A DNA stretch of 31,239 nt from a virus (IMGVR_UViG_2671180673_000015); one strand, 5' to 3'. Shown: positions 25,482 through 28,880, numbered from the stretch's first letter. Numbers and translations are program-made. Notes: generated by a model from the letters alone, not told the origin.

Positions 25482-25943
25482 CTATCTGCACTGCTCATTA
25501 ATATACTTCTGGGTTCCTTCCAGTTGTTTTTGCATAGTGATCAGCCTCTCTCTGAGGGTGAAATAATCCCGTTCAGCGGTGTCTGCCAGTCGGGGGGAGG
25601 CTGCATTATCCACGCCGGAGGCGGTGGTGGCTTCACGCACTGACTGACAGACTGCTTTGATGTGCAACCGACGACGACCAGCGGCAACATCATCACGCAG
25701 AGCATCATTTTCAGCTTTCGCATCAGCTAACTCCTTCGTGTATTTTGCATCGAGCGCAGCAACATCACGCTGACGCATCTGCATGTCAGTAATTGCCGCG
25801 TTCGCCAGCTTCAGTTCTCTGGCATTTTTGTCGCGCTGGGCTTTGTAGGTAATGGCGTTATCACGGTAATGATTAACAGCCCATGACAGGCAGACGATGA
25901 TGCAGATAACCAGAGCGGAGATAATCGCGGTTACTCTGTTCAT
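25482..25943 (-). CDS. Rz: Rz i-spanin (153 aa)
   Basis: [55 protein letters not shown]... lambda Rz-like; start ATG overlaps the R stop. Confidence 0.9.
25541..25723 (-). CDS. Rz1: Rz1 o-spanin lipoprotein (60 aa), embedded in the +1 frame of Rz
   Basis: [52 protein letters not shown]...: lipobox VVGC and proline-rich segment, lambda Rz1-like. Confidence 0.88.
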
Positions 25944-26437
25944 TGCTGACCCCACAAACAGATTTCACGCTCAATCTCACGACGAGTCATGAGACCTTTC
26001 CATTGCTTACCGCCAGCATATGTCCAGCGACGTAGCTGATCACATGCGCCTTTGATATCGCCCTGGTTTATTTTGCGAAGAAGCGTCGATGTTCTGAAAT
26101 TGCCAGCACCCACGTTGTAAACGAATGAGTAAAGAGCGCCGCGCGTTGTTTCCGGTATATCGACTTTGATGTACGGGTTAATTTGTCTGGCGACAGTGGC
26201 AAGGTCTTTATTCAAGAGTGCTTTGCATTCTGCTTTGGTATACGTTTTACCGAGCATGATGTCTTTTCCTGTATGCCCGTGACATACAGTCCATACACCA
26301 ACAATATCTTTGTATGGTATGTAGCTGACACCTTCCAGACCATCGTTACCACTTGGGCCAGTAATTAACACTGATGCTATAGCAATTGCTCCGCCACCAA
26401 TAGCAGCAGCAACGGCTTTTCGTAATGATGGAGGCAT
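25940..26437 (-). CDS. R: SAR endolysin (phage-21 R / DLP12 RrrD-type lysozyme), 165 aa
   Basis: [57 protein letters not shown]...: Gly/Ala-rich N-terminal signal-anchor-release domain plus T4-lysozyme-like catalytic core (family knowledge). Not the lambda transglycosylase R. Confidence 0.88.
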
Positions 26438-26652
26438 TATTCACCTCTCGCAGCCTTGCGCTTATCTTCTTTAATCTTGAAATAAAGGTTTGTCAGGTAC
26501 GTCAGCAGGCCAAATACCAGGCTACCCAGCACTCCAATTGCCGCCCACTGTGAGGGCGTGACTTTATCTAGCAGCTGTAAAAACCAGTACCCGGCACTAC
26601 CTGCTGAGGTGCCATAGGCGACACCCGTTGTTAACTTATCCATGGATTTCAT
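26437..26652 (-). CDS. S: Pinholin S (phage-21 S21 type), 71 aa with dual-start motif MKSM
   Basis: [71 protein letters not shown]: two transmembrane segments, basic C-terminus. RBS GAGGTGGGG upstream; stop overlaps the R start. Confidence 0.88.
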
Positions 26653-26762
26653 AACCCCACCTCGCAGACAAAGCGGTTGTAAATTGAGGGAATACTACGA
26701 AACGTAACAGACTCGGAGTCAGTGAATAACTCAGGTATTGGGTTATCAGCTAATATCGAGAC

Positions 26763-26797
26763 TCAAAAAATGGAAAAACCCGCTCGACGGCGGGTTT
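26763..26797 (-). terminator. Rho-independent terminator on the late strand about 110 nt upstream of S (candidate tR')
   Basis: Seen in sequence: - strand aaacccgccgtcgagcgggttt followed by ttccattttttgag. No - strand ORF ends here, so a regulatory role is inferred. Confidence 0.55.
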
Positions 26798-27224
26798 AAG
26801 CTGTGTGACGAAGTAACCACTCTTAACAGCATAACCAATTTTTTACGTACGTAAACCACTAAATGATATTTGCGAGAATGCTACCGAGTATTGAAAACAC
26901 CACTACAAATACATAAGCAAATCTCAACAAATAACCAACAAATAATTTCCAGCGTTATTTTTAACCGATTTAAATTGAACCTTCAAATTATAGAGCACTT
27001 ATAAATAACAGCCATTAATATAAATTGGCTAATAGATTTATTTTTATTCAGCCAAGAGCCATGAATAGGATTCGATAGAAAAAAGTTCAGATAAAAATAG
27101 AGATCTACTTCACAAATCAAACGAGAAACCAAAACTTACATCTTGAAATAATCACATTGATTAGATGAATATTTATCGCGCAGTGACATCATTTTTTAAT
27201 AATAGTTCAAAAAAAGGGCTCACG

Positions 27225-28307
27225 ATGAAAAAATTAACAGTGGCAATTTCTGCTGTAGCTGCATCAGTACTGATGGCGATGTCTGCTCAGGCAGCTGAAA
27301 TTTATAATAAAGACAGTAACAAGCTGGATCTGTACGGGAAAGTTAATGCTAAGCACTACTTCTCCTCTAATGATGCAGATGATGGTGATACTACTTATGC
27401 CCGTCTTGGCTTCAAAGGTGAAACCCAAATCAACGATCAACTGACTGGTTTCGGTCAGTGGGAATATGAATTCAAAGGCAACCGCGCTGAATCTCAAGGT
27501 TCTTCCAAAGACAAAACCCGTCTTGCATTTGCAGGCCTGAAATTTGGTGATTACGGCTCAATCGATTACGGCCGTAACTACGGTGTAGCATACGACATCG
27601 GTGCGTGGACTGACGTTCTGCCAGAATTCGGTGGTGATACCTGGACCCAAACAGATGTGTTCATGACTGGTCGCACTACTGGTGTTGCAACTTATCGTAA
27701 CAACGACTTCTTTGGTCTGGTCGATGGCCTGAACTTTGCTGCTCAGTATCAGGGTAAAAATGACCGCACTGACGTAACTGAAGCCAATGGTGATGGTTTC
27801 GGTTTCTCCACTACTTATGAGTATGAAGGATTCGGCGTGGGTGCAACCTATGCTAAATCAGATCGCACTGACGGTCAGGTCGCCTATGGTAAGAGCAAAT
27901 TCAATGCCTCCGGCAAAAATGCGGAAGTATGGGCTGCAGGCCTGAAATATGATGCGAACAATATCTATCTGGCTACCACATATTCTGAAACTCAGAATAT
28001 GACCGTTTTTGGTAATAACCATATTGCAAACAAAGCACAAAACTTTGAAGCAGTAGCACAATATCAGTTTGACTTCGGTCTGCGCCCATCTGTTGCTTAC
28101 CTTCAGTCAAAAGGTAAAGACCTTGGTGTTCATGGTGACCGAGACTTAGTCAAGTATGTCGATGTCGGTGCTACTTACTACTTTAATAAAAACATGTCCA
28201 CTTTTGTTGATTACAAAATCAACTTAATTGACGATAGTAAGTTTACCAAAACAGCTGGTATTGATACCGACGACATCGTCGCTGTAGGTCTGGTTTACCA
28301 GTTCTAA
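27225..28307 (+). CDS. nmpC: Outer-membrane general porin, NmpC/OmpD-type (OmpC/OmpF family), about 360 aa with signal peptide; apparently intact
   Basis: [47 protein letters not shown]...GLVYQF: porin signal peptide, C-terminal Phe, 16-strand porin hallmarks. Sits between Q and S on the opposite strand, as nmpC does in DLP12. Confidence 0.9.
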
Positions 28308-28315
28308 TCTGATTA

Positions 28316-28357
28316 CGAAAAAGATATGTTGCGGGAGGCGTTGCCTCCCCAACATAT
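28316..28357 (-). terminator. Extended hairpin (ATATGTTG-GGGAGGC...GCCTCCC-CAACATAT) with T-run on the - strand, about 140 nt downstream of Q (alternative tR' candidate)
   Basis: Seen in sequence: - strand atatgttggggaggcaacgcctcccgcaacatat followed by ctttttcg. It lies just after the nmpC stop on the + strand but the T-run is on the - strand. Confidence 0.5.
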
Positions 28358-28444
28358 AAGTGGCTCCCTCAAGCCACTTCCTTTAGAAGCACAACCTTGC
28401 TTCTAACTATATAAACCTTCTGTTATATATTACCCTTTATTTTT

Positions 28445-28476
28445 GGGGGCGTCTCAACGCCCCATTTTTAATAATT
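28445..28476 (+). terminator. Hairpin GGGGGCGTCTCAACGCCCC followed by ATTTTTAATAATTTTT on the + strand; likely nmpC terminator
   Basis: Seen in sequence, about 140 nt after the nmpC stop. Confidence 0.5.
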
Positions 28477-28496
28477 TTTAGTAAACAATTGGCATA

Positions 28497-28880
28497 TTAA
28501 TTAGAGTTATTAACAACGATATCCATCTCTAACTGGATATCTAATGCCATTAACATCCCTTCAATTATGCCCTCAGCCTTCTGTAACCTTTTCCCGATAT
28601 AACCATCAGAGCAGCAATGCTTACCTGCCAGTGACATGAATGTCATACCGACTACATAATAATCTACTAATAAATCGTGCAAATCGCTGTTGTTCTTTTT
28701 CAGACGGGCCATGCACCCGCAAATGATCATAGCGTCATCGTCACAACATTGCGGGCGAGATTTTACTTTTGAAGTAATTAATCCCTTAAAACCGGCGGCA
28801 ATGGACGACCAGGTCACATCTTCATGATTATTAGCCGCCCACGCTCCCCAACGCTCAAGAACCATCTGAATATCACGCAT
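28497..28880 (-). CDS. Q: Late-gene antiterminator Q (phage-82 / DLP12 QuuD type), 127 aa
   Basis: [60 protein letters not shown]...: recalled as QuuD/Q82-like, with a Cys-rich zinc-binding motif. Start taken at ATG 28880 with RBS GGAG. Confidence 0.88.

Follow-up and report, generated by a model that had tools for sequence, protein, structure and literature searches.

A probable DLP12-type late-regulation and lysis module beside lambda-type virion genes in an E. coli prophage

Gene content and layout of the region

We analysed a stretch of DNA of 31,239 nt, here called the window, with the region of interest at 25,482-28,880; bor falls just beyond it. The window contains the following features, listed with the match or scan that identified each:

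25157-25450, plus strand: bor/iss, serum-resistance lipoprotein (PF06291, E = 4e-30; lipobox ITGC with Cys17)
25482-25943, minus strand: Rz, inner-membrane spanin subunit (PF03245; N-terminal TMD at residues 4-22)
25541-25723, minus strand: Rz1, outer-membrane lipoprotein spanin subunit, wholly embedded in Rz in the +1 frame (PF06085)
25940-26437, minus strand: R, SAR endolysin with a T4-type lysozyme fold, 165 aa (PF00959, E = 1e-45)
26437-26652, minus strand: S, class II pinholin (PF04971, 'Bacteriophage P21 holin S', E = 2e-35)
26766-26797, minus strand: tR', putative promoter-proximal intrinsic terminator, AAACCCGC-CGUCGA-GCGGGUUU and then a U-run (consensus scan, centroid hairpin)
26828-26855, minus strand: pR', putative late promoter by homology, with -35 TTTACG (26855-26850), a spacer of 16 nt and -10 TATGCT (26833-26828)
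27225-28307, plus strand: Lc/NmpC-type general porin, 360 aa, intact, with signal peptide (PF00267, E = 2e-151, full length; NCBIfam OmpC subfamily)
28318-28357, minus strand: strong terminator-like hairpin followed by CUUUUU, downstream of Q (dG = -21.3 kcal/mol, z = -5.6, 0/200 shuffles as stable)
28446-28470, plus strand: terminator-like hairpin followed by AUUUUU, 139 nt past the porin stop codon (consensus scan; dG = -13.9, z = -3.4)
28497-28880, minus strand: Q, late-gene antiterminator, 127 aa (PF06530, E = 3e-53)
28966-29106, minus strand: ylcG (NF033498)
29103-29465, minus strand: rusA, Holliday-junction resolvase (PF05866 and NCBIfam NF007305)
29462-29752, minus strand: ybcO (DUF1364, putative nuclease), in a phage-82/DLP12-type nin block (PF07102, E = 2.8e-42)
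29799-31239, plus strand: IS21-family element in ninE, with istA at 29900-31072 (Pfam rve and Mu-transposase domains); the stretch ends inside the element

All genes of the module are intact, that is Q, the opposite-strand porin gene, S, R and Rz/Rz1, along with bor. A sequence-only reading of this DNA had the gene content, coordinates and strands right, and its description of the region as DLP12-like holds: apart from the IS5 of K-12, the window and DLP12 are collinear over ninE to bor. DLP12 (ybcO-rusA-ylcG-quuD-nmpC-essD-rrrD-rzpD/rzoD-borD, the 'qsr-prime' substitution) contains the same genes in the same order and on the same strands, collinear over 25103-29798. Its QuuD, EssD and RrrD are 99.2%, 100% and 99.4% identical to Q, S and R, and its pR'/tR' block is identical. 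The window differs from DLP12 in several respects. The porin gene is intact (in K-12, nmpC contains IS5), and its distal two-thirds are allelically distinct, at 70-88% nucleotide identity; bor has the allele of phage 21; ybcV and ybcW are missing; an IS21 element lies in ninE; and the module is attached to a complete lambda-like virion gene set. The virion genes had been described as lambda-type, and they share 95.5% nucleotide identity with lambda over 18 kb.

Judged from its sequence, 25482-28880 is very probably the usual late-regulation and lysis module of the DLP12 type (historically 'qsr-prime'-type), attached to virion genes of the lambda type in a full-length E. coli prophage. We established directly the identities of the genes, the homology breakpoints, the families of the proteins, the motifs in the sequence and the homology of the promoter; the biochemical steps proposed below draw on established work on Q21, S21/R21 and lambda Rz/Rz1. 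DLP12-type Q-porin-lysis modules are ordinary in E. coli lambda-like prophages and have been known since the 1970s-80s through qsr-prime/DLP12, phage 21 S/R and PA-2 Lc/NmpC. Such a module was present, with coverage of at least 80%, in 2063 of the 5426 complete E. coli genomes (over a third). Viable phages including ev207, 2G7b, PhiR11_1 and mEp332 contain near-identical modules (95-97.5%), and phage 434B acquired its module from K-12. The significance of the locus is small, as textbook lambdoid mosaicism.

Homology to both DLP12 and phage 82 stops at 29798, at the edge of the IS21 element. In strain 582 the insertion is the same, and the remainder of the prophage continues past it. The insertion might reduce the expression of Q. 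It also bears on the proposal that the module has been domesticated and no longer serves phage release, as suggested for DLP12 of K-12 from vesicle and biofilm phenotypes, the prophage here being crippled by IS21. The element does interrupt ninE between the early region and Q, and host-level roles have been published together with RpoE/Hha control of the DLP12 cassette (PMC7918800). Nonetheless, we consider domestication unlikely: no gene of the module is damaged, and the prophage in the matching complete genome retains replication, immunity, recombination and integration genes as well as lambda-like virion genes. Near-identical modules are found in viable, sequenced phages, and, by established lambda biology, N-antiterminated transcription is not necessarily stopped by an IS in ninE, which is non-essential.

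A putative late promoter beyond the porin gene

A block in the window aligns with the sequence annotated in VT2-Sakai as 'putative late promoter / Q-utilization / terminator', which there comes directly after Q. The promoter predicted from this block, pR', lies 1.65 kb downstream of Q, past the porin gene and some 200 nt before S, with a predicted transcription start near 26821. A perfect 14-bp palindrome, TTTACGTACGTAAA (26842-26855), overlaps its -35. The pR' motif occurs once in the window (0.07 expected), and in DLP12 the 100% identical block lies about 190 nt upstream of essD. A simple sigma-70 scan did not pick up pR' at 26828-26855 because its -10 and -35 hexamers are weak matches. The hairpin that follows corresponds by homology to the terminator that comes first after pR' in VT2-Sakai. 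In Sakai Stx phages a functional tR' has been reported 258 nt from pR' (PMC7547250), so this first hairpin may be only a partial terminator.

The 933W/VT2-Sakai/H-19B-like Stx phages share with the window the -35 TTTACG, the dyad, 'TAAGAGTGGTTAC' in the initial transcribed region and the first GC-rich terminator hairpin. In those phages, however, pR' is 44 nt downstream of Q, with the cargo (tRNAs, stx) beyond it, inside the late transcript, whereas here a porin-bearing segment of 1.6 kb parts Q from pR' and the window lacks the distal StxS part of the Sakai leader.

In lambda, 21, 82 and 933W the late promoter adjoins Q, and if this usual lambdoid layout applied here Q-modified polymerase would read antisense through the porin gene to S. 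The 189-nt spacer between Q and the porin gene is AT-rich with several hairpins, and phage 1H12, whose Q is 87% identical, has a promoter/terminator-like stretch directly after Q with cargo genes downstream, as this layout would require. Against it, the minus strand at 28300-28500 contains no promoter-like site, the spacer has no homology to the promoter regions of 933W or 1H12, and the conserved pR'/tR' block matching 933W sits beyond the porin gene, at 26766-26855. This block is present once per locus in DLP12, 434B and E. coli relatives. In 89 IMG/VR loci with the pR' motif, a Q homologue was always upstream wherever the DNA sufficed, either 13-70 nt away or separated by a porin gene or other cargo; the block comes 44 nt after Q where there is no porin gene and about 1640-1660 nt after Q where there is one. 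A promoter next to Q is therefore highly improbable here, and we place the late promoter beyond the porin gene.

The porin contains a 16-strand general-porin domain and is encoded between Q and S, in the same position and on the same strand as in DLP12. Its amino acid sequence is 100% identical to that of at least 12 sequenced lambdoid phages and 90.7% identical to both PA-2 Lc and rejoined K-12 NmpC. The 5' third of the gene shares 99-100% nucleotide identity with K-12 nmpC and the remainder 70-88%. The genes for Lc and NmpC occupy the same place in the lambdoid late region; the allelic differences fall in six short patches (about residues 149-151, 182-232, 268-272, 308-311 and 340-352). We read the porin gene as a cargo (moron) gene between Q and the putative late promoter. 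It had been called an antisense porin gene, and it is indeed on the opposite (plus) strand, but it is not antisense within the late operon (minus strand), the predicted late promoter lying beyond it. With pR' on the far side of the porin gene from Q, the porin gene would be outside the late transcript and its expression in the lysogen need not depend on prophage induction. The stx genes, by contrast, sit downstream of the homologous promoter, and the placement of the porin gene is a useful correction to its annotation. The gap between Q and pR' holds the porin gene in this window and encodes a CPBP-like membrane protein in L064.

Lysis genes

S has 85.9% amino acid identity to S21. It has a dual start, Met1-Lys2-Ser3-Met4 with upstream GAGGTGGGG, giving S71 (antiholin) from Met1 and S68 (holin) from Met4 (26643); the dual start is annotated likewise in phages 21 and 434B. 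TMD1 (residues 8-28) has 12 Gly, Ala, Ser or Thr among its 21 residues and falls below the hydropathy cut-off, and TMD2 (residues 36-54) is strongly hydrophobic, with a score of 1.72. R is as close to R21 (99.4%) as to RrrD and matched PDB entries 4ZPU and 3HDE at E ~1e-111, its solved relatives being 3HDE, 3HDF and 4ZPU. The N-terminal signal-anchor-release segment of R (residues 8-27) is weakly hydrophobic, with 13 of 20 residues Gly, Ala, Ser or Thr, and the catalytic motif is E35-x8-D44-x5-T50. The identities, Pfam families, structures and motifs support the earlier assignment of S and R as a pinholin/SAR-endolysin pair of the phage-21 type. S21 is described as making nanometre-scale holes that depolarise the membrane without passing endolysin (Park et al. 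2007, as cited in PMC9239132). From its 86% identity, S of the window is predicted to make similarly small holes. By analogy with R21, R would be released as a SAR endolysin, a class whose definitive test is whether depolarisation or a pinholin frees the protein from the membrane (PMC9239132).

Rz and Rz1 have the features of a two-component embedded spanin of the lambda type, with a lipobox, VVGC with Cys20, in Rz1 and 10 Pro among the 40 residues of its mature part. Rz is 99.3% identical to its counterpart in lambda, 98.0% to that in phage 21 and 96.1% to that in DLP12. For Rz1 the values are 100% for phage 21 and 98.3% for both lambda and DLP12. The spanins had been labelled lambda-type, which is fair as to likeness, although they are not specifically lambda's. 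The same reading took bor as lambda-like. Its product is 90.7% identical to lambda Bor, but phage 21 Bor is nearer at 97.9%; identity to DLP12 is 89.7%, and the RefSeq name of the identical protein is Iss.

The lysis cassette of phage 21 resembles that of the window in R, Rz, Rz1 and Bor, in the dual-start S and in gene order, with nucleotide homology over 24867-26653. It differs in its S allele (86% amino acid and 77% nucleotide identity, with a jump to at least 95% at about 26458-26390) and in everything upstream of S, where phage 21 lacks a porin gene and has a Q21, pR' and QBE of its own along with two tRNA genes. Lambda shares Rz/Rz1 (98-99%), bor (91%) and the overall order, with the late promoter between Q and the holin gene, followed by the endolysin and spanin genes. 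The window proteins have no relation to lambda Q (PF03589), to the large-hole holin S105/S107 or to the transglycosylase R. The pairwise alignments proposed as a check in the sequence-only reading gave no S or R closest to lambda; identity to lambda S and R was only about 20% in forced global alignments, so these proteins are unrelated.

Q family and mosaic structure

Q scored 179 bits with PF06530 over the whole profile (1-118), the cut-off being 26. This family, which also matches Q21 and the Q of VT2-Sakai, is defined as Q21, and PF06323 as Q82 (PMC9388147). Q is 77% identical to the VT2-Sakai/933W-type Q and 77-80% identical across Stx-phage Q proteins (933W, VT2-Sakai, H-19B-like). It aligned with Q21 by blastp at 30% over 88 aa (E = 6e-11) and with Q21 chains 6P18/6JNX in the PDB by phmmer (E = 1.2e-6). 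An AlphaFold2 model of Q, of moderate confidence (pLDDT 72, pTM 0.68; residues 20-44 below 50), was compared with the PDB using Foldseek. The best 12 matches were all Q21, with probabilities of 0.98-1.00 and a TMq of 0.45-0.63 (best 0.63). By Pfam, sequence and predicted fold, Q is of the QuuD/Q933W type within the Q21 family. We found no match of Q to PF03589, the lambda Q family, and a forced global alignment with lambda Q gave 12% identity and a negative score.

Q had been described as phage-82-type, which the alignments contradict: blastp against phage 82 Q (X92588, 229 aa) returned noise (E = 8.2). Q82 itself matches PF06323 with 317 bits (E = 6e-95), whereas neither Q of the window (at E <= 0.001) nor the 99%-identical QuuD (at E <= 1) matches that family. 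The family of Q decides which mechanism can be deduced, and its placement with Q21, not Q82, is a useful annotation correction. The mechanism of the Q21 family has been solved (nozzle) and that of Q82 is still open (PMC9388147).

The neighbourhood of Q looks phage-82-like because ybcO, rusA and ylcG match orf96, rus and orf45 of phage 82 at 99%, 100% and 91% identity; ybcO is also 99% identical to DLP12 YbcO, and rusA 95.8% to DLP12 RusA. Our comparison used X92588, a 2.3-kb fragment of the phage 82 nin-Q region with the lysis genes outside it, and by blastn it covered 28965-29798 at 99.0%. The end at 28965 coincides with the ylcG stop codon and the Q82 start codon. Likeness to phage 82 is thus limited to ybcO-rusA-ylcG and stops at the start of Q, and the sequence-only reading probably transferred it onto Q.

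The region is, as had been noted, a mosaic relative to lambda. Lambda nucleotide homology stops at the R/Rz junction (25943), the start of Rz being its exact boundary, and is not resumed through Q or the nin genes. We rejected this junction as a new recombination event in this prophage, since the order S-R-Rz-Rz1-bor recurs in phage 21 and DLP12, with near-identical Rz/Rz1. Rz/Rz1 are not a separate lambda piece because they are equally identical to phage 21. A three-way mosaic of phage 82 (Q), phage 21 (S, R) and lambda (Rz/Rz1, bor) accords with the genes just upstream of Q but is refuted by direct alignment, given the different family of Q82, the end of phage 82 homology precisely at its start codon, and Rz, Rz1 and bor that resemble phage 21 at least as much as lambda.

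Proposed course of late expression and lysis

In our proposal, the early rightward transcript would run through ybcO-rusA-ylcG into Q. Q would then act in trans at pR', 1.65 kb downstream past the opposite-facing porin gene, where, by analogy with Q21, it would load on RNA polymerase paused just after initiation and override tR'. Control of the SRRz/Rz1 operon of DLP12 by a Q-type antiterminator has been described (PMC7918800). Polymerase past tR' would transcribe S-R-Rz/Rz1 and then the virion genes across cos. S68 pinholin would build up in the inner membrane, restrained by the S71 antiholin, until it triggers, when its small holes would depolarise the membrane. Depolarisation would free the tethered SAR endolysin R into the periplasm, where murein would be degraded, and the Rz/Rz1 spanin would fuse or disrupt the outer membrane last. 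The porin gene and bor/iss would be cargo with their own promoters, outside or antisense to the late transcript, and their expression would be expected in the lysogen.

The QBE annotated for Q21 was not seen in the pR' sequence; the 14-bp dyad is a candidate binding element. We tentatively suggest, as a possibility that may well prove wrong, that this dyad over the -35 of pR' is the DNA element of the QuuD/Q933W subgroup of Q, and that the gap between Q and this element is a recurrent insertion site for lysogen-expressed cargo. The papers that we read contain no statement of the dyad as a Q element or of such a cargo-insertion gap; specialists in Stx phages may already know of them. The sequence of the dyad is TTTACG-TA-CGTAAA in the window and TTTACG-AT-CGTAAA in phages of the 933W type, and in the 89 promoter-like loci its centres all preserve the symmetry. 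If the suggestion is correct, Q of the QuuD/Q933W type would bind as a symmetric pair, unlike Q21 with its direct-repeat element.

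Gene content of the late-control and lysis region

The block that runs from Q through a porin gene to S, R, and Rz/Rz1 is a well-known DLP12-type late region that is real but ordinary and already known, and as a mosaic compared with lambda it is a textbook case. The window is a lambdoid prophage whose late genes lie on the minus strand. The range 25482-28880 begins exactly at the Rz stop codon and ends exactly at the Q start codon, and contains or adjoins the following genes, listed in transcription order:

28497-28880, minus strand, Q, 127 aa
27225-28307, plus strand (opposite to the late genes), porin gene, 360 aa
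26437-26652, minus strand, S, 71 aa
25940-26437, minus strand, R, 165 aa
25482-25943, minus strand, Rz, with Rz1 embedded within it
25541-25723, minus strand, Rz1, embedded in Rz
25157-25450, plus strand, bor, just outside the range

RefSeq E. coli genomes include a stretch with 100% identity, in which the genes are named quuD, ompC, essD, rrrD, rzpD, and iss. Q, S, Rz, Rz1, and Bor had no NCBIfam model, and searching 24000-31239 against Rfam at E <= 0.1 gave no match. None of the 40 ambiguous bases of the window falls in the Q-lysis region. These single-base N calls lie within 1174-24070, grouped in the tail and head genes (e.g. 10056-10236 and 18831-19467), and may come from reads of several similar prophages that were collapsed during assembly.

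Q belongs to the Q21 family

Each protein was aligned with its counterparts in lambda (NC_001416), phage 21 (OL657228), DLP12 (the cryptic prophage of E. coli K-12, taken from MG1655), and phage 82. The phage 82 comparison rests on a 2.3-kb nin-Q fragment (X92588), and the S, R, and Rz genes of that phage are outside it.

Amino acid identity of the window proteins to reference proteins. Values of 12-22% are forced global alignments, meaning unrelated proteins.
Q: lambda 12%; phage 21 20%; DLP12 QuuD 99.2%; phage 82 blastp E = 8.2 (noise)
S: lambda 22%; S21 85.9%; DLP12 EssD 100%
R: lambda 20%; R21 99.4%; DLP12 RrrD 99.4%
Rz: lambda 99.3%; phage 21 98.0%; DLP12 96.1%
Rz1: lambda 98.3%; phage 21 100%; DLP12 98.3%
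Bor: lambda 90.7%; phage 21 97.9%; DLP12 89.7%

The sequence-only reading had called Q a phage-82 type, and this is refuted both by the blastp result against phage 82 Q and by Pfam. The window Q matched PF06530 (E = 3e-53) and no other Pfam family. This family is also matched by Q21 and by the Q of the Stx phage VT2-Sakai (933W-type), while phage 82 Q matched PF06323 (E = 6e-95) and lambda Q matched PF03589. The same three Q families, with Q21 in PF06530, lambda Q in PF03589, and Q82 in PF06323, are distinguished in structural papers (PMC9388147), and the PF06530 group was named 'Q21/Q933W' in an earlier preprint. Identity of the window Q was 77% to VT2-Sakai Q and 77-80% to Q proteins from many Stx phages. 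Its similarity to Q21 was significant but distant (blastp E = 6e-11; phmmer against PDB E = 1.2e-6), and when an AlphaFold model of it (pLDDT 72) was searched with Foldseek the top twelve matches were all Q21 structures, with a TMq of about 0.6. Thus, the window Q belongs to the Q21 family and is of the QuuD/Q933W type within it.

The phage-82 assignment is a slip that is easy to explain because the three genes adjoining Q upstream are phage-82-like. These genes, ybcO, rusA, and ylcG, are 99%, 100%, and 91% identical to orf96, rus, and orf45 of phage 82, and the 99% nucleotide homology to this phage stops at window 28965, the position of the ylcG stop codon and the counterpart of the Q82 start. 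Literature searches pairing QuuD with phage 82 found nothing.

Lysis proteins and cargo genes

S and R proved to be phage-21-type, as had been proposed, with 85.9% and 99.4% identity to phage 21 and only the 20-22% of unrelated proteins to lambda. S has a Met1-Lys2-Ser3-Met4 dual start, a first transmembrane segment in which 12 of 21 residues are Gly, Ala, Ser, or Thr, and a strongly hydrophobic second segment. In R, the N-terminal segment is rich in Gly and Ala (13 of 20 residues), the catalytic motif is E35-x8-D44-x5-T50, and the nearest solved structures are RrrD (4ZPU) and R21 (3HDE/3HDF). At the level of sequence, these are the defining features of a pinholin/SAR-endolysin system, in which a membrane-tethered lysozyme is released by small-hole depolarisation (PMC9239132). 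Rz has an N-terminal anchor and Rz1 is a proline-rich lipoprotein (Cys20) encoded wholly inside Rz in the +1 frame; together they are predicted to be a classic two-component spanin. The description of these spanins as lambda-type is correct in that they are lambda-like (Rz 99.3%, Rz1 98.3%), but it is not diagnostic since they are equally phage-21-like (98.0% and 100%).

The porin (PF00267) and Bor/Iss are cargo genes. At least 12 sequenced lambdoid phages encode a porin 100% identical to this one, which is also 90.7% identical to both PA-2 Lc and the rejoined K-12 NmpC.

Nucleotide breakpoints

The window aligned with lambda at 95.5% identity over 6396-24401 (J to Nu1, up to cos), continuing across cos to 24812, and again over 25103-25943 (bor and Rz). 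This second alignment ends exactly at the R/Rz junction, and nucleotide alignment found nothing lambda-like in the window to the right of it. The alignment with phage 21 spans 24867-26653, from bor to the S start codon, and bor carries the phage-21 allele in its 5' part. Nucleotide identity to phage 21 is only 73-78% in S and rises to at least 95% at about 26458-26390; this jump points to an old exchange point at the S/R boundary. DLP12 is collinear with window 25103-29798 once the K-12 IS5 is removed. Since the order S-R-Rz-Rz1-bor and near-identical Rz/Rz1 are common to phage 21, DLP12, and the window, we read the R/Rz junction as ancestral in modules of this kind and as no new recombination event in this prophage.

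Compared with K-12 nmpC, the first third of the porin gene is 99-100% identical in nucleotides and the last two-thirds (27560-28330) are 70-88% identical, which suggests recombination within the gene or else diversifying change that possibly affects surface loops. The amino acid differences are gathered in six short patches.

The bor-to-cos genes of lambda (p78, p79) and DLP12 (ybcV, ybcW) are missing at 24813-25102, and ylcI (24601-24795, DUF3950) is all that remains. The C-terminal, host-range part of J (5413-6396) has 75% identity or no match to lambda and about 92% identity to phage 21. Downstream of J, 4746-5345 encodes a Lom homologue, 2306-4687 a side tail fibre, and 975-2015 a protein bearing an S74 chaperone domain. 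Window 87-358 is about 88% identical to the attP arm of lambda (lambda 27471-27742), and therefore one end of the prophage (an att junction) is probably near window 90-105.

The putative late promoter lies beyond the porin gene

In the 189-nt spacer that separates the stop codons of Q and the porin gene, a simple sigma-70 scan gave no promoter-like site on the Q strand, and the 200 nt after Q had no meaningful homology to the post-Q promoter regions of VT2-Sakai and phage 1H12. Because of this missing homology, we sought the late promoter, pR', elsewhere. A VT2-Sakai block annotated 'putative late promoter / Q-utilization / terminator' aligned with window 26766-26855, which, seen from Q, lies beyond the porin gene and about 200 nt upstream of S. 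Predicted elements of the two regions are:

28446-28470, porin strand, terminator-like hairpin (RNA fold)
28318-28357, Q strand, strong terminator-like hairpin followed by CUUUUU (dG -21.3, z -5.6)
26855-26850, minus strand, putative pR' -35, TTTACG (alignment with the VT2-Sakai block)
between -35 and -10, spacer of 16 nt
26833-26828, minus strand, putative pR' -10, TATGCT (alignment with the VT2-Sakai block)
transcript start of putative pR', TAAGAGTGGTTAC, conserved
26776-26797, putative terminator tR', GC-rich hairpin and U-run (consensus scan, RNA fold)

The simple sigma-70 scan of the minus strand did not flag a promoter at this pR' either, so the promoter call is based on homology and not on consensus strength. 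The pR'/tR' block has an identical copy in DLP12 upstream of essD and occurs exactly once per related locus. Of the Sakai late leader, the window shares only the first ~50 nt and lacks the distal StxS sRNA part. From this homology we conclude that the porin-bearing segment probably sits between Q and its promoter, that the porin gene and late operon would be divergently transcribed from an AT-rich 570-bp spacer (GC about 0.28-0.39), and that late transcription need not cross the porin gene. The earlier description of the porin as antisense was right about the strand but probably wrong about its relation to the late transcript.

The S-R-Rz/Rz1 operon of DLP12 has been described as having its own regulatory region under the control of a Q-type antiterminator (PMC7918800 and its refs 27, 28). 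The window Q would be produced from the early rightward transcript and would work in trans at pR'; by analogy with Q21, it would load onto paused polymerase and make it resistant to tR' and later terminators. This loading and antitermination mechanism is described for Q21 (PMC9388147; preprint 10.1101/651190), and its transfer to the window Q is inferred by us.

A match to the 933W terminator hairpin at 19897-19919 (GAACCCGCC-TATG-CGCGGGTTTT, 22/23 nt) is inside the coding sequence of head gene C and is probably a coincidence.

A dyad at the putative late promoter and variation in its distance from Q

The -35 of the putative pR' is overlapped by a perfect 14-bp palindrome, TTTACGTACGTAAA (26842-26855), which in 933W-type phages reads TTTACGATCGTAAA. 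Scanning IMG/VR for this dyad gave 89 promoter-like loci (within loci L014-L133). In all 89 the central pair was TA or AT and the symmetry was kept, while unrelated chance matches had central pairs of all kinds. A Q homologue (59-99% identical) was present in every promoter-like locus with sufficient upstream DNA. The dyad is a candidate Q-binding element of the QuuD/Q933W subgroup.

The gap between Q and the promoter was of three classes:

13-70 nt, Stx-phage style
about 1640-1660 nt, with a porin gene between, the style of the window
roughly 800-3300 nt, with other cargo between (e.g. L064; L019, L073, L085, and L094 are also listed for gap variants)

This gap seems to be a place where cargo is repeatedly inserted, and it differs from the better-known site, which lies downstream of pR'. 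The gap as an insertion site and the conserved late-promoter dyad of this Q subgroup are the only mildly interesting by-products of the analysis. At L064 (5100-6155) the gap holds an ORF for a 274-aa CPBP/CAAX-like membrane protein. Phage 1H12 (L013, 3878-6929), in which Q is 87% identical and the dyad motif is absent, has a promoter-and-terminator-like stretch directly after Q and quite different cargo between Q and S, namely an opposite-strand gene for a Blc lipocalin, one for a YbgA-like protein, and a further ORF.

Prevalence of the module

The 4.1 kb of window 25000-29100 that include the Q-to-bor module were present at >= 80% coverage in 2063 of 5426 complete E. coli genomes, and the arrangement over 6300-31239 in 1746 of the same 5426 at the same threshold. 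The 25000-29100 stretch was also found in 28 phage records, with 92-97.5% identity among the matches listed. Phage 434B, which is viable, gained this same module from K-12.

An IS21-family element (istA at 29900-31072) occupies 29799-31239, where it interrupts ninE, and the end of the window falls within it. The identical insertion is present in ninE of E. coli strain 582, with istB and the rest of ninE beyond, followed by the remainder of a full prophage with replication, immunity, recombination, and integration genes.
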